Part shown: piece after piece, positions 3,863 through 64,000 of the stretch
How the letters are laid out: every line of letters starts with the position of its first letter
Numbering within the stretch: the stretch's first letter is position 1
NCBI GenBank assembly: GCA_030651815.1
Contig: JAUSBW010000271.1
Location: forward strand, 4,137-68,136
DNA length: 64,000 bases
Direction: 5' to 3'
From: Methanoregula sp.
GTDB lineage: Archaea; Halobacteriota; Methanomicrobia; Methanomicrobiales; Methanospirillaceae
Notes under the pieces: model-generated
The model's input: only the letters and a program-made list of their open reading frames with translations
What the model was told of the DNA's origin: nothing
Database searches by the model: none
Program-made: the position numbers and the translations under genes

Positions 3863-4083
3863 TTCATGTCCGTTTTTTAGTGCATTTTATCCTCCACAGC
3901 AGAAGACCCCGCTACTGATGGCGGGGATGAATGCGTCATCATACCAAACTATTATTATGCAATACTACAAATATTAATATCCTGAGATTGGGAACACAAT
4001 CTCTGTCCGAAAGAAGGACTAGAAGCCCCGTCCTTTAGGGTGGGGAGTGTTCACTACCCTGACAACGAGATATCTGGTATCGG

Positions 4084-4923
4084 ATGAGTGCAGCAGGATT
4101 TTTCACCATCACCCGCCCGGCGAATGCGCTGGTATCCGGAATAACGGCGATCATAGCCTACCTGATCGCAACCGGAACTATTATTCCCTCTACCGTTCTC
4201 CTGCTTGTCATTGTCACCCTGATTACCGCAGCCGGAAATGTGATCAATGATTATTTCGATGCAGACATCGATCGGATCAACCGCCCTGAACGCCCGATCC
4301 CTTCCGGGATCGTAAGCCCCATGGCTGCATGGGGTTTTGCAGTTACGCTGTTTCTTTTTAGTATACTGGCAGCCCTTTTTACCCCCCCGCTCTGCCTGTC
4401 CATTACTCTGATAAATACACTGATTCTGGTACTGTATGCGGCAAAGCTCAAGAGCATGCCGGTGGTTGGCAATGCAGCAGTCGCGTATCTTGCGGCCAGC
4501 ATCTTTCTCTTCGGGGGAGCGTTTGCCGGCTGGCATGCACTTGTACTGATGCTCCCGCTTGCCGTAATCACGTTCCTTGCGACAATGGTCCGGGAAATCT
4601 TAAAAGATGCTGAGGATGTGGAGGGTGATGCTGCGGGAGGTGCCGATACTCTTCCGATCCGTATAGGTATCCGGCCGGCTACCCGCATTGCTCTGGGATT
4701 TGCTCTTGTTGCTGCTGTTGCAAGTGTTGTTCCTTATCTCTGGTGGGGGATGTGGTACCTCGTCGGTATTGTCATTGTCGATATCATCATTCTCGTGGCA
4801 GCAATCAGGACGCTGCCCTGTAAAACACCTGCCTCTGTCAGGGCAACCCGATCAACCACGCTCATCAAGGCGGGTATGTTTGCCGCTCTCGTGGTATTTG
4901 CACTGTCGGCAATTTTCCTGTAA
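4084..4923 (+). CDS. UbiA-family prenyltransferase, digeranylgeranylglyceryl phosphate synthase-like
   Basis: Polytopic membrane protein with the Asp-rich motif NVINDYFDADIDRINRPERPIPSG and a second acidic motif KDAEDVEGD. Confidence 0.8.
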   Translation: MSAAGFFTITRPANALVSGITAIIAYLIATGTIIPSTVLLLVIVTLITAAGNVINDYFDADIDRINRPERPIPSGIVSPMAAWGFAVTLFLFSILAALFTPPLCLSITLINTLILVLYAAKLKSMPVVGNAAVAYLAASIFLFGGAFAGWHALVLMLPLAVITFLATMVREILKDAEDVEGDAAGGADTLPIRIGIRPATRIALGFALVAAVASVVPYLWWGMWYLVGIVIVDIIILVAAIRTLPCKTPASVRATRSTTLIKAGMFAALVVFALSAIFL

Positions 4924-10880: not shown

Positions 10881-11090
10881 CCCTCCACTTGTCGTTCGTA
10901 CGATTATATGATCGTCTCCTGCTAATTAGATATCTTTCGCAGGTGCCGGGATGATAGCAGGAATGGGTGACTGTGATAACGTCTTTGAAAAATGAGGAAT
11001 GTCCCTTGTTTTTTTTGGCTGACAGGAATGATATTATTGGATGCTTACGCATTTTTTATCTGGATTATCCAGTATTTGTGAGAGTGAAGT

Positions 11091-24652: not shown

Positions 24653-24878
24653 CGGTCTGCCAGAGAAGGATCGCAGGATCGTCAAGCAGCAGTTGCTGAA
24701 ACTTGAAGATCCGTATATTGCCACGGATGTGGAGTTGTTGCAGAACGGTCACTGCCGGATGCATATCGCCCATACCTATACTGCGTTCTTCGATGTTCTG
24801 TCCGGGGGCATTGTGAACATTCTCGAAGTGATGACGGTTGAGGAAGCGCATAAGCGGTACAAGCGGTTTGGGAGGTAA
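24612..24878 (+). CDS. relE: RelE/ParE-superfamily toxin
   Basis: 88 aa. CRMHIAHTYTAFFDVLSGGIVNILEVMTVEEAHKRY parallels the toxin at 16658. Confidence 0.7.
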   Translation: MTVNIDKLALQYVNGLPEKDRRIVKQQLLKLEDPYIATDVELLQNGHCRMHIAHTYTAFFDVLSGGIVNILEVMTVEEAHKRYKRFGR

Positions 24879-38762: not shown

Positions 38763-38777
38763 TTACTGTTTGAATGT

Positions 38778-38850
38778 GCCCGGGTAGTGTAGTGGCCTAT
38801 CATGATTGCCTGTCACGCAATCGACTCGGATTCGAATTCCGACCCGGGCG
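38778..38850 (+). tRNA. tRNA-Asp (anticodon GTC)
   Basis: Acceptor GCCCGGG/CCCGGGC, anticodon stem ATTGC/GCAAT with loop CTGTCAC, T-arm TCGGA-TTCGAAT-TCCGA, discriminator G. Confidence 0.9.
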
Positions 38851-39079
38851 TTACTACGATTTTTCTCATTTTGCTGTTCTTCTGTGAATAGTTCCTTCAG
38901 CCGAAAGCGGAATGTATTTGCTTTCCGGCAGAGGACAGAAGATAAGCCAGAGTTTGGCCACCCTCTTGTGGAAAAATTGTTGGTGAAGGGTAAGTGGTAC
39001 CCCCTTCAATCAGGAAACAGCTCGACCGGATAATAGATCTTCAGGACTGTACAAGACCATTTTTACTTAGAGAAGGTCA

Positions 39080-46853: not shown

Positions 46854-47438
46854 TCAAATCCCCATTCCCGTAATAATCCCCACCACCTGCTGCGCCGTCA
46901 TCGGATCCACCACCCGGGCCAGCACGAGGCCCGCCATCGCAACAAACAACGACCAGAATACTTTCTTCACCTGCTCATTCTTCCCGAACGCTTCAATCAC
47001 AATATCCATGTCAGCATGCAGCCCCCGTTGGATAAGCTTCGGCAGGAACACAAACAAAGGAAGAAACAGAACCGCCGCCCCGATGAATGCAAGTGTGATC
47101 TCCGCCCGGCCTGCAAGGAAGCACCCGACCGGGACCGCAAACACACCGGCCAGCATCGAGGCCATCCCGACCTCGCCAAACCAGAAGTAATGCCGCTTAT
47201 CGGAATAGTTCAATCGCTCTTCATTCGTAAGCGCTGACAAGTCAAAGATGCCGAGCGTGTTCAGCATCCCGTACCAAACCGCGTGCGTCTCCTCCGGGTC
47301 CGCAACGAGACCAAGAAACAGAACCGCGATCGGTACAATCAGAAGAAGAAGGGGAAGGTGAGCCAGCACCAGGACCAGCCCGAGCAGGCACCCGGTCCCG
47401 CAGATCGCACACCGGGTCTGCAACTCATTCTCGAACAT
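46854..47438 (-). CDS. hypothetical polytopic membrane protein (194 aa)
   Basis: Counted from the internal ATG (MFENELQ). About five hydrophobic helices. 14-nt overlap with the upstream ORF. The first 96 codons of the track ORF lie out of frame over the upstream gene and are Arg/Ser/Gly-rich, like shadow sequence. Confidence 0.5.
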   Translation of the reverse strand: MFENELQTRCAICGTGCLLGLVLVLAHLPLLLLIVPIAVLFLGLVADPEETHAVWYGMLNTLGIFDLSALTNEERLNYSDKRHYFWFGEVGMASMLAGVFAVPVGCFLAGRAEITLAFIGAAVLFLPLFVFLPKLIQRGLHADMDIVIEAFGKNEQVKKVFWSLFVAMAGLVLARVVDPMTAQQVVGIITGMGI

Positions 47439-47907
47439 CAGGATTCTCCGCAATCCGGATCTCGAACACCGGGCTCGTGTATCCGCCATTCGCCGCGCTG
47501 AAATCCCGGACCCGCCCCATCTGGGCGAACTTGCGCCGACCGGTCCGGATCTGAATCGTGTGGATACCCGGCGCTCGCGGGTAAACCCGGCGACAATCGA
47601 TGTCATGCATCTCCTCATATGGTGGGATGTCGAACCAGTCCGGCCAGAACCGGACCCCTCGCGGAATGTCCGTTCCACAGCGCAGGTCCTGCAACCGCAT
47701 GGGCGAGAGGTTATCGTAGCGCACATCGATGATCAGATTCTCATCGCACTGCTCCGGGTGCAGGTCCAGTTCATAGAAGATCGGATTGCGCCGCACCTCG
47801 TCCCGTGTGAGTGGGGTGCGGACCGTGAGCAGCTCAAGCCCGTCGAACTTTCCCCGGTAGAGGCCGGTCACTGTAGCGATTGGCTGCATCGCGCTCTCAG
47901 CTTCCAT
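47425..47907 (-). CDS. hypothetical soluble protein (160 aa)
   Basis: Counted from the internal ATG (MEAESAMQ). Overlaps neighbours on both sides (11 and 14 nt), implying translational coupling. No motif recognised. Confidence 0.5.
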   Translation of the reverse strand: MEAESAMQPIATVTGLYRGKFDGLELLTVRTPLTRDEVRRNPIFYELDLHPEQCDENLIIDVRYDNLSPMRLQDLRCGTDIPRGVRFWPDWFDIPPYEEMHDIDCRRVYPRAPGIHTIQIRTGRRKFAQMGRVRDFSAANGGYTSPVFEIRIAENPDVRE

Positions 47908-48061
47908 GACACTCCTCCTTGTGGTGATCGTGCTCGTTCCGGTGTTTCTTGAACTCCTCGACAACCTCATCATACCTGCCGATCTTCTGGTAGATGGCAA
48001 ACAGCATGGGATAGAGCGGGAGCACGGCTCCAAGCATAATCCCTAAAACTTCAGTGTCCAT
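47897..48061 (-). CDS. small membrane protein with His-rich tail (54 aa)
   Basis: MDTEVLGIMLGAVLPLYPMLFAIY TM helix, then KKHRNEHDHHKEECHGS. GGAGGG Shine-Dalgarno-like sequence about 7 nt upstream. Confidence 0.4.
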   Translation of the reverse strand: MDTEVLGIMLGAVLPLYPMLFAIYQKIGRYDEVVEEFKKHRNEHDHHKEECHGS

Positions 48062-48072
48062 AACGGCCCTCC

Positions 48073-48127
48073 AAAAAAAAGACGAGAGGACCAAAAAGGG
48101 AGGTGACCAAAAGATAGGTCTCCTCCC
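48073..48127 (-). terminator. intra-operon hairpin + T-runs (attenuator/terminator) after the 167-aa gene
   Basis: 11-bp stem with one mismatch (48098-48108 / 48117-48127), followed on the minus strand by T5 (48093-48097) and T8 (48073-48080). Confidence 0.45.
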
Positions 48128-48153
48128 CCCTGGTCTTTTCGCCCAAAGCGATT

Positions 48154-48657
48154 CTAAGCGAGTGCCGCTACGGTGTCTGCCCAGGTTTCGACCTTTGTCC
48201 GGATGCCATCATCCGAATAGGAGGTGAGGGAAACCCGCTCCCGGCCGAAGTTCACCATGAACAGTTCACCGTTCGGGTCATGGCACTTGAGGGTCGCGCT
48301 GAACGTCTCGTTGTCGGAGTCACGGGCCGCAGTGCCGCCATGGGCGGTTGAAAGGGCCGTGTCTGCGAGAATCGCTGTGGCTCCTGCATCGAAACCGGCG
48401 ATGGTGGCGAACTTGTCCGACAGGCTGCCGACAGTCTTTGCCATGGCGTCCTGGTAGACAATCTTCACGGTGTAACCTTCCTTTGTCTTCTCAACCGGGT
48501 CATGGGTTACACCTGCGGTCATATACGATACACATGCAAACGGGTTGTCGGTAATGACCGACTGGACGATCGTGTTGAAGGTCGTAACATCTGCAATCGG
48601 GCTCGCGAGTTCGCGAACCGCACTCTTTGTTACATTGCTCTGTACGAAATCTGCCAT
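48154..48657 (-). CDS. hypothetical acidic Thr/Ala/Asp-rich protein (167 aa), possibly abundant/structural
   Basis: Clean ORF with an AGGA ~12 nt upstream, its own promoter-like region and a downstream attenuator-like hairpin. No signal peptide, no family recognised. Confidence 0.6.
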   Translation of the reverse strand: MADFVQSNVTKSAVRELASPIADVTTFNTIVQSVITDNPFACVSYMTAGVTHDPVEKTKEGYTVKIVYQDAMAKTVGSLSDKFATIAGFDAGATAILADTALSTAHGGTAARDSDNETFSATLKCHDPNGELFMVNFGRERVSLTSYSDDGIRTKVETWADTVAALA

Positions 48658-53884: not shown

Positions 53885-53906
53885 TAGTTTCAGAATTGTG
53901 ATCGAA

Positions 53907-55706
53907 ATGCCGGACACGAATGATACTCTAATTAATCTCTCCTTCTCGATGCACTCAGGCCCGGGAACATTTGCCCTCCTTCTTGGTTCTGGGATCTCAC
54001 AGGGTGCTGAAATTCCTACAGGATGGGAGATTGTTTGTGACTTAATTCGTAAGCTGGCGACTCTCGAAGGAGAACCAGATATCGATAATCCTGAACCGTG
54101 GTTTGAGGAAAAATATCATGAAGCGCCTAAGTATTCTTTCCTGATAGAAAAAGTCGCTCCATCTCCAACTGCCCGACAAAACCTGTTGAAACAATATATC
54201 GAACCTACCGATTCGCAACGAGAACAAGGGTCGAAGGTTCCCTCTCAATCTCATAAGTCAATTGCACAACTCGTGAAAAATGGAACGATTCGAGTCATCC
54301 TGACAACAAATATTGATCGATTACTCGAAACCGCTTTGGGGGAAGTGGGTATTACACCAGTTGTTATTTTTAATGATGATTCTCTCGAAGGTGCGATGCC
54401 CTACGTTCATTCTCCGTGTACAATCATCAAACTTCACGGCGATTACCTGGACACCCGGATTAAAAATACTCCCGACGAGCTTGCCAAATATAGCGAGAAG
54501 ATGAACACCTGTCTCGACAGAATTTTTGATGAATTTGGCCTGGTAATATGCGGCTGGTCTGCAAAGTGGGACATCGCTCTGCGAGATGCACTTTACCGGC
54601 GGCAGAACAGACGGTTCTCTTCCTATTGGGCGTACCCACGAAATTTGAGTTCCGAGGCATCGGACTTGAAAGATCATCTTCAAGCTATACCTTTGCAAAT
54701 CGAAACTTCTGACAATTTTTTCCAGAAACTTTCGGAAAATATCGGGGCATTGCAAACATTTGAACGTCCCCATCCTCTTTCTGTTCCGCTTGCAGTTGCA
54801 CAGGTGAAAAAATATCTTTCAGAAAATAAGTACCAAATTCAGCTTCATGATTTCATTCAAGAGGAAACGAATTACCTTTGCGATCAATTAAGATCTGAAC
54901 GATTCAACATTAAAAACCTGCAAATACAAAAAGGTCAATATAAACCGATTTTTCAAAACCGGATGCATGAATATGAAGAATTGTTGAAAATGCCAATGGG
55001 AATTTTTACTACTTATGTATATTTTGGCACAAACCATTCCCCAAAGCCGATTGTTGATGCAATGGAAAGACTTCTTCAAAAACCTTACACCGAAGGACTG
55101 GTAATATTTGTCAATCTTCAACATTATCCGGCGCTTCTTTTAAACTACTCAGTTGGGATTGCTGCTTTAGAAGCAGAAAATTTTGGTGCTCTGTTCTCTC
55201 TATTATCAAAACCAATTAGTAATGAAAATGGAAGACCGGAGAATTCACTTAAACATCTTCAGGCTGGGTATATTTTTGGTTCTGATGCAACAAAATTAGT
55301 TCCAACTCCCCAGGAAGATATTGACTATTATACTCCTGTGAGCGATTATGTTCATGGATTTCTTGGAGAACAGTTAAAGGATTTGATTCCCGATTCAAGA
55401 AAATTTGATAAAACATTTGATCTCTTCGAATATCTGGTCGGATTGATATTCGTCGATCAAAACTTCCAGGATTTAACAAATGCAAGGCTTTACGGCCCCG
55501 TTGGAAGGTTTAAGTGGAAATACAGACTGTATGGTTTGGCGGACAGACCTTCTCCGATAGAAGAATTCTTTCAACGGGGGATTTCTCAAGGAAATAATTG
55601 GGGCTTGTTACATGCAGGATTTTTTAATGGATCGGTTGAACGTTTATCGGCGTGTAAAACTGCATATGACACGTATCTGAATTCGGTTGGCCAACATTGG
55701 CTTTAA
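53907..55706 (+). CDS. SIR2_2-family protein with a ~330-aa uncharacterised C-terminal region
   Basis: LLLGSGISQGAEIPTGWEI, ILTTNIDRLLE and IIKLHGDY motifs of the SIR2-like (SIR2_2) NADase/deacetylase fold. A GTG at 53898 is an alternative start. Confidence 0.8.
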   Translation: MPDTNDTLINLSFSMHSGPGTFALLLGSGISQGAEIPTGWEIVCDLIRKLATLEGEPDIDNPEPWFEEKYHEAPKYSFLIEKVAPSPTARQNLLKQYIEPTDSQREQGSKVPSQSHKSIAQLVKNGTIRVILTTNIDRLLETALGEVGITPVVIFNDDSLEGAMPYVHSPCTIIKLHGDYLDTRIKNTPDELAKYSEKMNTCLDRIFDEFGLVICGWSAKWDIALRDALYRRQNRRFSSYWAYPRNLSSEASDLKDHLQAIPLQIETSDNFFQKLSENIGALQTFERPHPLSVPLAVAQVKKYLSENKYQIQLHDFIQEETNYLCDQLRSERFNIKNLQIQKGQYKPIFQNRMHEYEELLKMPMGIFTTYVYFGTNHSPKPIVDAMERLLQKPYTEGLVIFVNLQHYPALLLNYSVGIAALEAENFGALFSLLSKPISNENGRPENSLKHLQAGYIFGSDATKLVPTPQEDIDYYTPVSDYVHGFLGEQLKDLIPDSRKFDKTFDLFEYLVGLIFVDQNFQDLTNARLYGPVGRFKWKYRLYGLADRPSPIEEFFQRGISQGNNWGLLHAGFFNGSVERLSACKTAYDTYLNSVGQHWL

Positions 55707-55726
55707 TTAATAATTTTTCGAGGAAT

Positions 55727-57022
55727 ATGAAATATTCAAATGATGTTCCTGATGGATATAAGGCAACGGAGTTAGGTGTGTTACCGGAGGAGTGGGATAT
55801 CATAGCCATTGGTAAATTTGCATCCTCTAAATCTGGGGGTACACCATCCACATTAAAGGAAGAATATTGGAAAAATGGGACTGTTCCATGGGTAAATTCA
55901 GGAGCTCTCAAAGATAATTTTGTAAATCAACCGAGTACTTTGATTACAAAGCTTGGATTAGAGAATAGTTCTGCAAAGTTATTTCCAAAAAAAACCGTTC
56001 TAATTGCATTAACTGGTGCAACAACCGGTAGGGTTGGGATATTAGATATTGAATCTTCAACAAATCAGTCAGTTGTCGGAATTTTACCTAATTCAAAATT
56101 TATTTCAGAATTTTTGTTTTATACCTTAATGTATTCTAGAGAGCAAGTATTGAAATTGTGTACAGGAGCTGCCCAGCCTCACATCAACAAAGCGATTGTT
56201 GAGAATTTCCTCGTTCCCTTTCCCCCGCTCCCCGAACAGCACGCCATCTCCACCACCCTTCGCACCTTGCAGGAAGCAAAGGAGAAAACCGAAGATGTGA
56301 TCGCAGCGACAAAGGCGCTCAAAGCGGCGATGATGAAGCACCTGTTCAGGTACGGTCCGTTACCTACGGAACTGGCGGAGCGGGTGGCGATAAGGGAAAC
56401 CGAGATCGGACAGGTGCCGGAGGGGTGGGATCTTCAGCCTTTAGGCAATATATCAAAAATTTCTTCTGGAGGTACTCCGAGCAGAACTGAGCCAAGTTAT
56501 TGGAATGGAGAAATTCCATGGATCAGGACTGGAGAAATCAATTATTCGATAATTGAAAAAACTGAAGAAAAAATTACCAAAGCGGGGCTAGATAATTCAT
56601 CAACTCGAATTGTTCCCAAAGGTACTCTCTTGATGGCAATGTATGGTGAGGGAGTTACTCGTGGTCGGGTTGGAATTACGGGAATTGACGCATCGATAAA
56701 TCAAGCAGTGGCAGCAATATTTCCTTCAGAAAAATTGTTAACGCCTTTTCTTTATTACTACCTCGAATTTAGTTACGAAAAAAATCGATTGCTTGGACAT
56801 GGCGCTCATCAGAGGAATTTAAGCGCAACGATCATCAAAACAATTTTAGTTCCAGTTCCTACCGAAAAGACTCAACAACAAATTGTTGAAATCCTTTCTT
56901 CCATCGATCAAAAACTCGCCGCCGAACAATCCCGCAAGGAAGCGCTCGACACCCTGTTCACATCGCTCCTGGACGATCTCATGACCGCGAAAATTCGAGT
57001 CAAACCTGCTGAAATTGCTTAA
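55727..57022 (+). CDS. hsdS: type I restriction-modification system specificity subunit
   Basis: Two target-recognition halves, each starting LGN/IGKF...SGGTPS. Conserved central and C-terminal helices (PPLPEQHAISTTL..., VPTEKTQQQIVEIL...). Confidence 0.9.
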   Translation: MKYSNDVPDGYKATELGVLPEEWDIIAIGKFASSKSGGTPSTLKEEYWKNGTVPWVNSGALKDNFVNQPSTLITKLGLENSSAKLFPKKTVLIALTGATTGRVGILDIESSTNQSVVGILPNSKFISEFLFYTLMYSREQVLKLCTGAAQPHINKAIVENFLVPFPPLPEQHAISTTLRTLQEAKEKTEDVIAATKALKAAMMKHLFRYGPLPTELAERVAIRETEIGQVPEGWDLQPLGNISKISSGGTPSRTEPSYWNGEIPWIRTGEINYSIIEKTEEKITKAGLDNSSTRIVPKGTLLMAMYGEGVTRGRVGITGIDASINQAVAAIFPSEKLLTPFLYYYLEFSYEKNRLLGHGAHQRNLSATIIKTILVPVPTEKTQQQIVEILSSIDQKLAAEQSRKEALDTLFTSLLDDLMTAKIRVKPAEIA

Positions 57023-57047
57023 CCATATTTCAGGAAAATGTGAAAAC

Positions 57048-57251
57048 ATGGACCGCAATCTTCTTCAAATTTTATTAATTCTCGGATTCGTGTTCGTATT
57101 CGGAGGTTTCCAGGGATTATACAATATTAGTATCGCGATCTGGTTTATCCTTGGACTCCTTATCCTTATCATGATCGACTTCTTCATGGGTGACATGATA
57201 ATGGCCGTATTGAAGATCATTTTTCATAAAGTTGTGAAACAAAGACGATAG
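57048..57251 (+). CDS. small membrane protein
   Basis: Two hydrophobic helices (LLQILLILGFVFVFGGF, IAIWFILGLLILIMIDFF). No family recognised. Confidence 0.35.
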   Translation: MDRNLLQILLILGFVFVFGGFQGLYNISIAIWFILGLLILIMIDFFMGDMIMAVLKIIFHKVVKQRR

Positions 57252-57297
57252 AATAGCGATAAAGATATCCTATGATAAATACAACCAATCGTTTAAC

Positions 57298-58323
57298 ATG
57301 ACGCTCTGGATGGTTCGGGCAGGCAAATACGGCGAATGGGAAAACCTTGCTCTGGAAAAAAATATGGCAATTCTGGGGTGGGTGAAAACACCGGACCTCA
57401 CCAATGTTCAAACCCGGGAACAGTTGCGGGAAATTCTGAATAAAGCATATCCGGACGAGAAAAACAGGGCACTCATCAACTTCGAGAGCCAGATATGGCC
57501 CTTCATTCGTGTGATGGAGAAAGGGGATCTTGTTGCAATGCCTCTGAAATCCAGATCTGCAATTGCATTTGGAATAATTGATGGACCTTACATATATCGC
57601 ACGGATCTTCCAGAAAATTCCCGACATACAAGGAAAGTGAACTGGTTCAAGGAAATTCCCCGCGATAAATTCGATCAGGATCTCCTCTATTCCCTCGGGG
57701 CATTCATGACCGTCTGCCGTATTCATCGCAATGATGCCGAAGACCGGATTAAAGCATTACTCGAAGGGAAACCACTCCCGGTAAAAAAACGGGGAACCGG
57801 TAAACAACCTGAAGAGGAAATAGAATCTGAAGATCTTCCTGTTCCTATCGAAGAGATGGCAACTGATGAAATCCGGAAATTCATCAGCAGGAAATTCAGA
57901 GGGCATGAACTGACCCGCCTGGTAGGTGCAATACTTGAGGCACAGGAATATACTACGAACATCTCCCCTCCGGGTGCTGATGGCGGTGTCGATATCATTG
58001 CAGGAAAAGGACCGCTCGGTTTTGATCACCCCCGTCTCGTAGTCCAGGTCAAGTCCAGCGACAGTCCGTGTGATGTGAAGATTGTCCGGGAACTGCAGGG
58101 AGTCATGAAGAATTTCCAGGCCGAACATGGCTTGTTGGTATCATGGGGTGGCTACAGCGGAACGGTACCAAAAGAAACCGCAACCAAATTTTTCGAGATA
58201 CGACTCTGGAATGCGGATGATCTCATTCAGATGATCCAGACCTATTACGATAAAATCCCTGATGAGATCAAAGCGGAACTGCCATTAAAGCGGATCTGGA
58301 TTCTTGTTCCGGAAGAGGAGTGA
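57298..58323 (+). CDS. Mrr-family restriction endonuclease
   Basis: C-terminal Mrr_cat core GADGGVDIIA...LVVQVKS (D...QxK), N-terminal recognition-type domain. Sits between hsdS and hsdR. Confidence 0.85.
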   Translation: MTLWMVRAGKYGEWENLALEKNMAILGWVKTPDLTNVQTREQLREILNKAYPDEKNRALINFESQIWPFIRVMEKGDLVAMPLKSRSAIAFGIIDGPYIYRTDLPENSRHTRKVNWFKEIPRDKFDQDLLYSLGAFMTVCRIHRNDAEDRIKALLEGKPLPVKKRGTGKQPEEEIESEDLPVPIEEMATDEIRKFISRKFRGHELTRLVGAILEAQEYTTNISPPGADGGVDIIAGKGPLGFDHPRLVVQVKSSDSPCDVKIVRELQGVMKNFQAEHGLLVSWGGYSGTVPKETATKFFEIRLWNADDLIQMIQTYYDKIPDEIKAELPLKRIWILVPEEE

Positions 58324-58326
58324 TAC

Positions 58327-61220
<2,894 letters not shown>

Positions 61221-61224
<4 letters not shown>

Positions 61225-61487
61225 TCTCACCGGAATCCTTCAAGCGTTCTGTCGGAGAATGGGCGAAAACCTGCAAGGTTGAAATAAAAGAGATCCACCT
61301 GCGTAAAATGAGGAACAAGTGGGCGAGTTGTTCAAGCAGGGGCCGGTTAACTTTTGACCGTTCAATTTTACGACAATCCAAAAACGAGCGGACAAAAATT
61401 ATTGTTCACGAATTGCTTCACCTGAAATATCCCAATCACGGCAAGATGTTCCGGGCGATGTTGAAAGCGTATACTGCTGACAAATGA
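61221..61487 (+). CDS. short DUF45/YgjP-like (M48-related) metallopeptidase-motif protein
   Basis: WASCSSRGRLTF...IVHELLHLKYPNHGKMF (HExxH). ATGA overlap with hsdR, a common hsdR partner. Confidence 0.65.
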
Positions 61488-61674
61488 ATTGTTTAAGACA
61501 GTCCATTCAATCTAAAAAAACTCTCCCGCTCCAACCGCTCATGATACCGTTTCGAAAACTACCGTTTGATTTTGGGATCGAGAGGGGGAGTGACGCTGAT
61601 AAAAGGATGGGGAAAATTCGAAATCGATGATCATAATGAATATGTGAAAAAACCTATATTGTTGAGAGCTTCCG

Positions 61675-62193
61675 ATGATTAAAATCGTAAGTATGGTAAC
61701 AATTTGCACATTAGATGAACCTCTTGATTTGCTCTATCTGTCTAACAATATTGAAGGGGCCATATTACCTAAAAAACTGGGAAGTTGGGTCAAATATCGA
61801 ATTAAACCAGAAAATTACTATATCGCGTTTTACAAATCTGGAAAATTTCTAATTACCGGTGTAAAATCATTAGAGACAATTAAAAATACTGCACAGCGAG
61901 TTCTAAAAATATTGGATGATGCAGGGGTTCGTAAAAGTATCACGAAAACTGAGATTGTCAACATTGTATGTCTCGGAACGTTGCAACTTAACACCACGCT
62001 GGAAAAAATAGTTTTTCATTTAGATAGCAGCGATGCAAGTTATGAACCGGAAATATTTCCAGGACTAATTTACAAAAAATGGGGTGCAACATTCCTTATA
62101 TTTTCAACAGGGAAGGTAATTATTACAGGTATAAGAGATTTTGAAAAAGCAAAAATAGTATTTGAAAAACTTGAAAAATTATTAAATTTTTAA
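61675..62193 (+). CDS. divergent TATA-box-binding protein (TBP) paralogue
   Basis: Two TBP-like repeats. Repeat 2, IVNIVCLGTL...YEPEIFPGLIYKKWGATFLIFSTGKVIITGIRDFEKA, is close to canonical. Repeat 1, IVSMVTICTL...YIAFYKSGKFLITGVKSLE, lacks the EQFPGL motif. AT-rich. Confidence 0.7.
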   Translation: MIKIVSMVTICTLDEPLDLLYLSNNIEGAILPKKLGSWVKYRIKPENYYIAFYKSGKFLITGVKSLETIKNTAQRVLKILDDAGVRKSITKTEIVNIVCLGTLQLNTTLEKIVFHLDSSDASYEPEIFPGLIYKKWGATFLIFSTGKVIITGIRDFEKAKIVFEKLEKLLNF

Positions 62194-62205: not shown

Positions 62206-64000
62206 TCAGGCGTTGCATCCGATCTCCCTTGCCTTCTCCCTCACCCCCCTCCCGTAACAATGCTCACACAACTTCACCCCAGCCTCCCGGTCAATCCACT
62301 CAGCTCTCACCAACCCACATACCGAACACTTCCCCACATCCGCAGTAACCCGCTCACACCGGGAAGCAACCACCGTCCCCGGCAATGGAACTAAAGCCAT
62401 CTGCTCAACCTTCACCGCCTCATTGAAACACGAGCGGCACACCCGCCGGGCTTCCTGCTTATCCTTTGACCGGGCTCTACGCTCATTGGTATATTTTTCA
62501 ATGAACCAGGAGCCTTTCCTCCCGCAGACATAACACGCGGTCTTTGGTTCCGAAGATTCGAGTTTCTTGTAATCCCGAACATCAATGGACCGGGCCGGTT
62601 CTGGTTTTTCAGCAACGGGTTCTGTTTTCAGCACACTTTCAGCATCTTTCGTACGGCTGCTGAAAGAACCCGGGGCGGAATTTGCCACCGGTTTACCCAA
62701 TTGTGCAGTTCCGGGCAGAGATCGTTTTTCGTTTTCAGCAGATCGCAGATTATGCAGATACTGAGATGAATTCATTTCAGATTTCAAAACACCTGCATTA
62801 TTCCGGTTTTGCTGAAAACCACCTTCTCTTAGTACAGAATTATTTGTACAATCATCTCCTTTGTTGGAATCGGGACCGCAGGAAGCAGCGATCTCATTTT
62901 CAGCAGTTGCTGAAAAACTGCTGAAACCCTGCTGAAACTGCTGAAAATGACCAGCATCATCATCATCGTTCTTCGGATTGCGGTCAAGCCAGCATGCTCC
63001 GCCGTTCTTCCACTGCCGGTAGAGCTCCCGGTCCCATAAAAACGCTTCGGTCCTGCGGCGGACCGAATATCCGTCAGTCTCGGTTACGGTCACCGTCCGG
63101 TCAGTGAATGAAAGGGCCGGGCATTTTTCGAGAAGCCCCGTATAGTTCCTGCCCCGGCTGTCGTAGCCTTTCACCGTTTTGTAAATGCAGGAGTAGGACC
63201 AGCCGGTGAGCCGTTGCAGGTCCTGGATGGTGAATTCCGTCAGAACCGCCTTCTCGATGGTTACAAGCAGGTCCGACTCTTTCTTTGTCATCTTCGATTC
63301 CTGCCCCCCCGCAGTTCCGTTCAGGAGCGTAAAGACTTCAGTTGCCGCAGCGAAATCCGCTTCATCCGCGTACACGCAGAGCGTCCCGTCACTACCGGTC
63401 TTCTGCTGTCGCTGCATGAAGAAGAGGGCCGCATGGCTCTTGATCAGATCGTAGAGCATGTCGGGATTGCGCCGGTTGCTGATTGTCTGGAACCGGATCT
63501 GTGTTGAAAAGGGAATGATCACCCAGATCATCTGCTCGTGCAGGATCTCCCAGATCTCCTTACAGACTGCCAGTTCAGGAGACTCCTCTATGAATGTGTC
63601 CGGGTCCTGTCCCTCCTTCTCCTGCTTTGATGCGAGAACGCGGGCATCCTGATCGGCAGACTCATCAATCCAACAGGTCAGCATCCGGTTCATCACCTGG
63701 TCGTCTCCGGTCCCTTCCTTCTTTGAAATCCACCAGACGCACCGCTCTGGAATCGTGCAGACCCGCGAGGTCAGATCCTTTGTAACAGTAGTGTGTGTGA
63801 TCGGTTCGTTGAAGTTTGAGGTGGCAGACTTCAGGATCTCCTGAATCCCGTCCGACAACTCGGTATCATCACTCATAAGTACCGTGCGGGGCCGGAGATC
63901 TTTCATATAGTAAAGAGCCTTGTTGCTCACTGTGCCATTTACTTTATACCGGTCCGGGACCTGCTGCATCATCTTCTTAAACGCGTGCGTCTTCCCCTTG
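62206..64000 (-). CDS. P-loop NTPase, replication-initiator/helicase-like, with wHTH and C-terminal zinc ribbons (5' end outside window)
   Basis: The frame stays open upstream of the track ATG to the window edge and reads ...KGKTHAFKK (Walker A-like GK[ST]). Walker B-like TVLMSDD. C-terminal CYVCG...CRSC and CSVCG...CEHC. Confidence 0.55.
   Translation of the reverse strand, partial: KGKTHAFKKMMQQVPDRYKVNGTVSNKALYYMKDLRPRTVLMSDDTELSDGIQEILKSATSNFNEPITHTTVTKDLTSRVCTIPERCVWWISKKEGTGDDQVMNRMLTCWIDESADQDARVLASKQEKEGQDPDTFIEESPELAVCKEIWEILHEQMIWVIIPFSTQIRFQTISNRRNPDMLYDLIKSHAALFFMQRQQKTGSDGTLCVYADEADFAAATEVFTLLNGTAGGQESKMTKKESDLLVTIEKAVLTEFTIQDLQRLTGWSYSCIYKTVKGYDSRGRNYTGLLEKCPALSFTDRTVTVTETDGYSVRRRTEAFLWDRELYRQWKNGGACWLDRNPKNDDDDAGHFQQFQQGFSSFSATAENEIAASCGPDSNKGDDCTNNSVLREGGFQQNRNNAGVLKSEMNSSQYLHNLRSAENEKRSLPGTAQLGKPVANSAPGSFSSRTKDAESVLKTEPVAEKPEPARSIDVRDYKKLESSEPKTACYVCGRKGSWFIEKYTNERRARSKDKQEARRVCRSCFNEAVKVEQMALVPLPGTVVASRCERVTADVGKCSVCGLVRAEWIDREAGVKLCEHCYGRGVREKAREIGCNA
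62607..62946. repeat. iteron-like array of the 8-mer TGCTGAAA / TTTCAGCA (11 copies)
   Basis: TTTCAGCA at 62607, 62626, 62637, 62733, 62898. TGCTGAAA at 62658, 62810, 62908, 62919, 62930, 62939. The last four are spaced 11, 11 and 9 nt. 62898-62915 forms an inverted pair. Confidence 0.7.

Follow-up and report, generated by a model that had tools for sequence, protein, structure and literature searches.

A concertedly changing array of octanucleotide sites within the rep gene of a Methanoregula integrative element, a candidate intragenic replication origin

The rep gene and its product

The DNA analyzed here, referred to as the window, is a stretch of 64,000 nucleotides from a Methanoregula contig (GenBank accession number JAUSBW010000271.1). 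It contains the 3' part of a gene for a replication protein (rep) whose coding sequence, in the part specifying a disordered interdomain linker, holds an array of short repeated DNA words. This gene fragment lies on the minus strand, at positions 62206 to 64000, and comprises 597 codons plus the stop codon. The start of the open reading frame (ORF) had been listed by an ORF finder at 63972, which needs to be corrected: upstream of that ATG, the frame continues as ...KGKTHAFKKMM and runs off the end of the window at a Walker A motif (KGKTHAF).

Relatives of this Rep protein, more than 750 in number and ~1030 amino acids long, are found in the genomes of Methanoregula and other Methanomicrobiales and in metagenomes. 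Full-length homologs of this size consist, in order, of an archaeo-eukaryotic primase (AEP)/PrimPol part, a zinc motif, a P-loop nucleoside triphosphatase (NTPase), a winged helix, a linker, and a zinc domain. As the structural basis for the domain limits, we used the AlphaFold (AF2) model of P0001, a full-length homolog with 86% identity. Since the mean predicted local distance difference test score (pLDDT) of this model is 57, it was used for statements at the domain level only. The N-terminal domain is modeled confidently and was matched by Foldseek to the AEP fold (Prim-PolC, LigD-Pol, CAPP, RepB', and Pri1; probability of 1.00, E values down to 3e-4); this PrimPol part, which lies outside the window, has the motifs IDIDP and SGNGAH without variation among the homologs. 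The NTPase is poorly modeled (pLDDT of 29 to 50), contains a Walker A motif (GKGKT), and matches Pfam AAA_22 at or below threshold. The winged helix (P0001 residues 671 to 763, with helix H3 at 701 to 709 and the wing at 728 to 754; window positions 63007 to 63285, minus strand) was delimited by its secondary structure and has a pLDDT of about 70 to 83 in parts. It is followed by the linker (62566 to 62982, minus strand; residues 340 to 478 of the window ORF), for which the model shows no secondary structure and a pLDDT of only 21 to 31 (P0001 residues 765 to 900), and, finally, by a folded C-terminal zinc-ribbon domain with CxxC pairs (62209 to 62565, minus strand; pLDDT of about 80). That a replication protein with a winged helix and, at its C terminus, a zinc domain is encoded here had already been guessed from the sequence, and both domains were indeed found.

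Searches of Pfam, NCBIfam, and PHROGs profiles with the window Rep fragment yielded no usable family, and a sequence search of the PDB produced no match; neither the Pfam nor the PDB sequence search detected similarity to ORF904 of plasmid pRN1. In precomputed annotation, PF27228 is assigned to 120 of 120 homologs among the matches listed. This family is named MTBMA_p00010_2nd, after the large ORF of the Methanothermobacter plasmid pMTBMA4; its model is missing from the Pfam copy used for our profile searches, and the assignment is that of the precomputed annotation only. The NTPase-winged-helix part is ~24.5% identical, over ~300 to 340 amino acids (E values of 1e-10 to 1e-11), to the Rep ORFs of pMTBMA4/pME2001 and pMTB1, plasmids of 4.4 to 4.9 kb, the ORF of pMTB1 being annotated as "putative Rep protein." In addition, a tyrosine integrase (Pfam Phage_integrase, 3e-25) is encoded 4 to 8 kb upstream of rep in 9 of 20 loci. 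On the basis of the AEP fold, the Walker A motif, the winged helix, the homology to plasmid Rep proteins, and the integrase context, what had been called a rep-like gene is the gene for the replication protein of a Methanoregula integrative element.

An array of 8-mers in the linker-coding region

Within 340 nucleotides of the linker-coding region (62607 to 62946), the 8-mer TGCTGAAA/TTTCAGCA occurs in 11 exact copies, with TGCTGAAA on the plus strand at 62658, 62810, 62908, 62919, 62930, and 62939 and on the minus strand at 62607, 62626, 62637, 62733, and 62898. This exact scan of both strands recovered every copy that an earlier, sequence-only reading of the window had listed, each in the same place and orientation, as well as the spacing of 11, 11, and 9 nucleotides between the last four copies and the inverted pair TTTCAGCA-GT-TGCTGAAA at 62898 to 62915. 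By chance, about 0.01 copies would be expected in 340 nucleotides. Whether the word might simply be common was checked within the window, and only four further copies are present in the other ~63.7 kb (at 24694, 52928, 54005, and 57007); in dinucleotide shuffles of the whole window, the word occurred 2.78 times on average and at most eight times, with none of 100 shuffles reaching the observed total of 15. A stack of all oriented sites defined the repeat unit as TGCTGNAA with a preferred ninth A and without a longer conserved flank. In the minus-strand ORF, the words are translated in three frames, as FQQ, as FSS or FSA, as AEN, AES, or AEK, and as LK, which reproduces the earlier observation that they are read in three different frames inside the gene.

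Following the coding strand, the region contains four words in direct orientation plus an inverted one, a near-identical block, word 6, a dyad, word 7, and a distal array, and the orientations of the words form a mirror-image layout (<<<<> < > <>>>). The promoter-proximal array (62898 to 62946) consists of the four direct words at 62939, 62930, 62919, and 62908 (spacing of 9, 11, and 11) and the inverted word at 62898, with the last two of these words making up a 9+2+9 palindrome, TTTTCAGCA-GT-TGCTGAAAA. The distal array (62607 to 62665) mirrors this arrangement, with a word at 62658 and three opposite words at 62637, 62626, and 62607 (spacing of 21, 11, and 19). Between the two lies the central dyad (62731 to 62819, with arms at 62731 to 62757 and 62793 to 62819), which, according to an inverted-repeat search, is built as word, 8 nucleotides, ATTATGCAG, 35 nucleotides, CTGCATAAT, 8 nucleotides, and word; its two words are the single site 6 (62810 to 62817), in the inner left arm, and the single site 7 (62733 to 62740), in the inner right arm. 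The least stable 60-bp duplex of the gene fragment, at 62797 to 62856, includes both site 6 and a block, CCTTCTCTTAGTACAGAATTATT, and is a candidate unwinding element. In 67 of the 68 full-length homologs examined for duplex stability, the linker is where the least stable 60-bp segment of the ~3.1-kb gene is found. The arms flanking the words of the dyad are 77% complementary across 66 homologs, versus 32 to 52% in slid registers, and show no compensatory change. A scan for promoters and terminators of the bacterial type, which relies on bacterial models and was applied here to the DNA of an archaeal host, gave nothing informative.

Constraint on the DNA of homologous linkers

For comparison, loci were collected from GTDB genomes (41 loci) and from metagenomes (80 loci), yielding 89 distinct linker sequences. 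When strand-symmetric 8-mers were counted de novo, the top word in almost every linker was TGCTGAAA, TGCTGTAA, TGCTGCAA/TGCAGCAA, TGCTGGAA, or TGCCGCAA. Each of the 89 linkers carries 5 to 13 words of this family (median, 11), versus 0.15 expected, and the start-to-start spacings peak at 10 to 11 bp (318 cases) and 19 to 21 bp (76 cases), corresponding to one and two helical turns. A codon-threaded alignment showed that the sites are positionally orthologous, that their orientation is kept across the family, and that their positions are conserved down to 55 to 65% protein identity. Within the ~20-kb loci, the word of a given clade clusters only in the linker, without a second cluster in the ~10 kb on either side.

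The words are conserved as DNA. Between the linkers of the window and of its relative L001, 0 of 88 motif bases differ, compared with 75 of the 326 remaining positions (p = 3e-9), and motif and nonmotif bases follow the same pattern in the T and C clades, which are introduced below. In a codon alignment of 29 homologs from GTDB genomes, conservation at codon positions 1, 2, and 3 was 0.91, 0.93, and 0.74 in the folded domains; in the word columns of the linker, it was 0.85, 0.78, and 0.83, so that the codon periodicity is gone, and in the nonword linker columns it was 0.70, 0.72, and 0.64, which leaves a faint sense-frame signal. Moreover, L001 and L034 share a compensated +1/-1 frameshift (about 11050 to 11080, corresponding to ~62920 to 62950 in the window) that spans the first two words and converts the peptide HFQQFQQG to HLSAVSAG, with both words left intact. 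An overlapping antisense gene was considered as the cause of this conservation and rejected, since the homolog alignment shows neither a consistently open antisense or alternative frame nor any antisense periodicity. The constraint thus acts on the DNA and not on the peptide, which strongly supports what the sequence-only reading had proposed for the window: the homologs retain the word in their DNA even where the peptide is altered, and the converse pattern, a peptide repeat maintained through synonymous variation, was looked for among them and does not hold.

Besides the 8-mers, the block CCTTCTCTTAGTACAGAATTATT (62822 to 62844; AATAATTCTGTACTAAGAGAAGG on the coding strand, encoding NNSVLREG) is near-identical in most homologs, including at third codon positions. 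This block is a second DNA-level element, for which an unwinding element, a primase start site, and a site for another protein are the candidate roles.

Word classes and the candidate reader

At its sixth base, the word is clade specific (TGCTG, then A, T, C, or G, then AA), and the same change is found in all copies of an array, in both orientations and in all three frames; as a consequence, the linker peptides of the clades differ, with AEN/FQQ/FSA, AVN/LQQ/FTA, or AAN/FAA at the corresponding places. Because 8-bp words scattered over 340 bp would be implausible substrates for homogenization by gene conversion, the natural explanation of such concerted change would be a trans-acting reader of the words whose specificity has shifted.

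The rep element is multicopy in its hosts, with two to four copies in several metagenome-assembled genomes (MAGs), namely, L003, L007, L017, and L029 in MAG fen_34, L008 and L010 in MAG SWC_42, and L020 and L021 in MAG BinA087. The classes can differ between such copies: in fen_34, L003 and L007 are of the T type and L017 is of the C type, and in SWC_42, L008 is of the C type and L010 is of the T type. Since different classes are found within a single MAG, the reader appears to be encoded by the element itself, with the caveat that MAGs are subject to binning errors.

To see which residues follow the word class, 87 full-length proteins with arrays of three classes were compared, and an alignment column was counted if its mutual information with the class was at least 0.5. 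Such columns are confined to P0001 residues ~559 to 772, where they account for 20 of 24 variable columns in the winged helix and for 13 of 25 in the preceding segment; the PrimPol part contains none (0 of 48). Nor does the C-terminal zinc domain (0 of 43), even though it is equally adjacent to the linker, and we therefore dismissed this domain as the reader. The small proteins C3 and C4, encoded just upstream of rep, were likewise rejected as the source of specificity, their sequences having no class-tracking columns, like the PrimPol baseline. Helix sequences of intermediate type (L009 and L059) are paired with mixed A/T arrays. All in all, we favor the winged-helix region of Rep as the candidate reader, a choice that follows from this pattern of covariation.

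In the window, a patch of ~200 nucleotides covering H2, H3, and the wing (63040 to 63234, minus strand; limits approximate, drawn from the identity to L008 and to A-type relatives) is 90 to 97% identical to the C-type locus L008 and 60 to 83% identical to A-type relatives. The presence of a C-type patch inside an A-type gene points to modular exchange between coresident element lineages. Separately, intact rep ORFs but only about five or six words, with mixed bases at position 6, are found in a subclade that consists of L015, L102, L105, L107, and L108 and is marked by the helix LTGWSYISIYRALKGY; the array of this subclade might either be decaying or be read with relaxed specificity.

A candidate replication origin

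We consider it fairly probable that the array is an intragenic, iteron-type replication origin and that its words are duplex binding sites for a protein encoded by the element, most likely the winged-helix region of Rep. The anatomy of the array, the comparative evidence, and precedent from other replicons together suggest this as the best-supported mechanism. In that case, Rep molecules would load onto the two mirror-image arrays of helically phased sites, which flank the central dyad and the least stable duplex, and the P-loop/helicase modules would assemble there and open the DNA. The N-terminal PrimPol would then prime on the exposed strands, and host replication proteins would take over, either after integrase-driven excision or in situ. 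By analogy to viral origins served by superfamily 3 (SF3) helicases, mirror-image phased sites around a melting region might bring about head-to-head loading of two helicase assemblies. The sixth base of the word would define incompatibility-like specificity classes, letting related elements share a host. Such an origin could sit in the gene because all that this stretch specifies is a disordered tether joining the winged helix to the zinc domain, which leaves the peptide free to follow the DNA.

Several observations weigh against this interpretation. The central segment is only moderately AT rich, with a mean nearest-neighbor free energy of -1.22 kcal/mol per step, and less stable duplex regions are present elsewhere in the window. 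Every copy whose location could be assigned is integrated, in contigs of up to 2.9 Mb, and terminal overlaps indicative of a circular contig were found in 0 of 18 whole-contig loci. The nearest true plasmids, pMTBMA4 and pMTB1, are without a comparable word array, and ORF904 of pRN1 uses a ~100-nucleotide stem-loop downstream of its gene, with no iterons (PMC4234260). The role of the winged helix, in particular, is called into question by recombinants: the window Rep combines a C-type H2-H3-wing and K at residue 763 with an array that is purely of the A type (11 of 11 words), and the homolog P0039 combines a T-type H3 with an A-type array. A residue-to-base code at 763 or in helix H3, suggestive when the family is viewed as a whole, is broken by the window, by P0039, and by L059 and was given up. 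Across recombinants, the linkage with word class survives only at residues ~753 to 772, within 20 codons of the linker, and as these residues abut the linker, plain genetic linkage would suffice to explain their association. The view of the sequence-only reading that the array consists of initiator binding sites is partly supported: the phased, mirror-image sites flanking the least stable duplex are origin-like, but the link to helix H3 by which we tried to tie the word to Rep is broken in recombinants.

With these recombinants in mind, it is possible, if on balance doubtful, that the four word classes divide a large, undescribed family of integrative replicons in Methanoregula into incompatibility-type groups, in which a single-base switch in 5 to 13 sites coevolves not with the recognition helix but with a noncanonical determinant at the C-terminal edge of the winged helix (around residue 763, which is M, V/A, or N). 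Given such a determinant near residue 763, natural helix-swap recombinants, such as the window copy, would stay functional.

Other functions of a protein-binding region acting in cis come to mind, such as copy-number or incompatibility control by handcuffing, autoregulation of rep or a transcriptional roadblock, centromere-like partition, or control of excision, with Rep or another element factor as the reader. We think this rather unlikely. A site array that is defined at the DNA level and changes concertedly would fit such roles equally well, the broken link between H3 and the word leaves room for a reader other than Rep, and the coexistence of classes in one MAG is what would be expected of incompatibility determinants. 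However, no ParA/ParB-like gene was found among the annotated conserved neighbors, where several small ORFs are without a Pfam match; C3 and C4 do not track the word class; no second array that might serve as an alternative origin lies within about 10 kb on either side; and neither an operator nor a centromere would need the least stable duplex of the gene, which the array flanks in all but one of the 68 homologs. Reading by a host factor, for instance, a paralog of Orc1/Cdc6 recognizing the words as mini-ORB-like boxes, would mean that the element borrows the initiator of its host. Archaeal chromosomal origins do contain short boxes that recur in both orientations about an AT-rich region, but different word classes are found together in one MAG and go with the Rep segment of the element and not with the host, which makes this very improbable.

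An origin might also be built from the inverted words by virtue of secondary structure, as a cruciform, a stem-loop, or an mRNA fold, in which case the concerted changes would amount to compensatory covariation. The orientation string is indeed an almost balanced bracket expression, and pairing between words 6 and 7 holds in 98% of cells, the variable position being occupied by AT, TA, and GC types. A ~100-nucleotide stem-loop serves as the origin of pRN1 beside a related type of Rep (PMC4234260). As single-stranded DNA, the coding strand of the linker folds at -66.3 kcal/mol, compared with -47.0 +/- 4.3 kcal/mol for shuffles (z = -4.5); in this fold, the two arrays pair with each other, and the excess arises because the words are inverted. 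Yet a structure would not need a single word for all of its stems, and identical stems would rather invite misfolding, while here 5 to 13 sites share one word and change together. Direct repeats with a phasing of 10 to 11 bp are not explained by pairing, either, and the two conserved site pairs that are 2 nucleotides apart leave too little room for a hairpin loop and are typical of dimer sites. In the flanking stem of the dyad, the sole variable pair is uncompensated (GC, 20; CG, 10; GG, 18; CC, 13), and the stretch that separates word and stem shows 51% pairing, like the slid controls; an extra stem flanking sites 6 and 7, which seemed compensatory when the window was compared with the T clade, failed over 66 sequences. 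Rfam returned only chance matches below threshold (SNORD69, the histone 3' stem-loop, and mir-232). Overall, we judge a structural mode of action improbable. There is next to no chance, finally, that the words are a low-complexity repeat of the linker peptide (FQQ/FSS/AEN) or a functionless product of chance or slippage. The region does encode a disordered linker of simple composition, but the words occur on both strands and in three frames, survive a compensated frameshift that alters the peptide, are as conserved at third codon positions as at positions 1 and 2, and hold their places down to 55 to 65% protein identity, with motif bases far more conserved than the other bases of the linker; the comparative data on homologous linkers exclude the peptide-repeat version.

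Comparison with known systems

To our knowledge, only a few plasmids among archaeal mobile elements have known replication origins, and none is known from Methanoregula, an abundant peatland methanogen, and our literature searches found no paper on this Methanoregula element family or its origin. The closest functional analog of this putative origin is the lambdoid origin, in which, as here, a site array and an easily melted segment lie in the ORF of the cognate initiator, over a dispensable interdomain stretch. Lambdoid phages fall into ori/O specificity types, the iterons travelling with the adjacent DNA-binding domain. Their O-binding iterons and an AT-rich tract lie midway along the initiator gene O, and extra iterons just add residues to the protein, harmlessly (PMC7466680). 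Several features set the two systems apart. The protein considered here is an archaeal fusion of an AEP PrimPol, an NTPase, a winged helix, and zinc motifs, whereas initiators of the lambda O type recruit DnaB via P; the sites are single words of 8 to 9 bp in both orientations, 5 to 13 per element, as opposed to four palindromic iterons of 19 bp; and the predicted DNA-binding domain is encoded upstream of and adjacent to arrays that are mirror images of each other and fall into explicit base-6 classes.

In their layout, the sites also resemble those of simian virus 40 (SV40) large T (GAGGC pentanucleotides), papillomavirus E1, and phage P4 alpha (octamer iterons), which are short words present in both orientations and in mirror-image sets around a melting region. 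Sites arranged in this way are thought to direct the head-to-head assembly of two helicase oligomers. Unlike in the Methanoregula element, those origins are intergenic; the DNA-binding domains are unrelated, and the AAA_22 match of the Rep NTPase is below threshold.

Among archaeal replicons, ORF904 of the Sulfolobus plasmid pRN1, which combines AEP PrimPol, SF3 helicase, and winged-helix modules, is similarly a modular initiator with a cis site on the 3' side of its gene, where assembly of Rep has been proposed. The pRN1 stem-loop, located downstream of the stop codon, is conserved little in sequence and highly in structure (PMC4234260); the array described here, in contrast, is intragenic and conserved in the sequence of its words, without compensatory support outside them. 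The Rep proteins of the Methanothermobacter plasmids (pME2001/pMTBMA4 and pMTB1) share a homologous NTPase-winged-helix part and PF27228; unlike the Methanoregula proteins, they are ~800 amino acids long and show no match to the PrimPol part of P0001; the one tblastn match obtained for them begins at P0001 residue 385. On pMTBMA4/pMTB1, two exact copies of TGCAGAAA are present in a noncoding region, a count within shuffle expectation. As a side observation, the noncoding region at 3865 to 4440 of pMTBMA4 (L123) contains several CTGCAG/TGCAGAA words resembling the TGCWGNAA family, again in numbers within shuffle expectation. In the bacterial repABC plasmids, oriV is found inside repC and is A+T rich without iterons, and the initiator is the incompatibility determinant (PMC3155836); what these plasmids have in common with the putative origin of the Methanoregula element is the location within the initiator coding sequence, and what they do not share are the iterons and the protein, which is unrelated.

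Intragenic iteron origins as such are, therefore, already known; the family of methanogen integrative elements, judged from the genomes and metagenomes covered here, would seem to be both abundant and undescribed. Provided that the array does act as an origin, it would, to the extent of our literature searches, be the first archaeal case of lambda-style iterons in an initiator gene, and a minimal replicon, rep alone, would be defined for a family of more than 750 members, which might provide vectors for methanogens that are without genetic tools. The word classes, the intermediates, and the domain-swap recombinants constitute a natural experiment on the evolution of initiator-origin specificity and incompatibility. 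Should the determinant indeed be the noncanonical one near residue 763, archaea would possess an initiator-origin pair with a simple, readable, and reprogrammable specificity code, written in the region that encodes a disordered linker. The array also illustrates cleanly how, in a disordered linker, selection on the DNA overrides selection on the protein, and this bears on how conserved linker "motifs" are to be read.

Extent of the element and neighboring genes

Besides the integrase, related loci share small conserved ORFs around rep and, downstream of it, variable cargo (a Dam-like methyltransferase, restriction-modification systems, and defense genes) and a conserved tail module. This module recurs in the window at 46854 to 48657, where two minus-strand ORFs of 290 and 167 amino acids without a Pfam match (46854 to 47726 and 48154 to 48657) belong to clusters C9 and C2, which were found downstream of rep in six to eight related loci. 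These positions suggest that the element spans at least ~46.8 kb to past 64 kb of the window. The nearest tRNA gene is a tRNA-Asp gene (38777 to 38851).

Convergent with rep, and ending 13 nucleotides from its stop codon, is an ORF on the plus strand (61675 to 62193) for a 172-amino-acid paralog of the TATA-binding protein (Pfam TBP, 4.7e-32). It is situated in a stretch of low GC content (0.42 at 61001 to 62000, versus about 0.52 around it). Since the ORF that occupies this place in L042, though equal in size, is not related to it, we regard the paralog as cargo or host DNA and discarded it as a core gene of the element. Further upstream, on the plus strand and reading toward rep, lies a type I restriction-modification operon (53898 to 61487); given its location between rep and the conserved tail genes, it is probably cargo of the element as well. 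Its HsdR subunit (58327 to 61224) has SWI2_SNF2, HSDR_N, and T1R_D3-like domains, and its stop codon is overlapped by a truncated ORF for a YgjP-like metallopeptidase (61221 to 61487). The operon region contains further ORFs at 53898 to 55706, 55697 to 57022, and 57298 to 58323.

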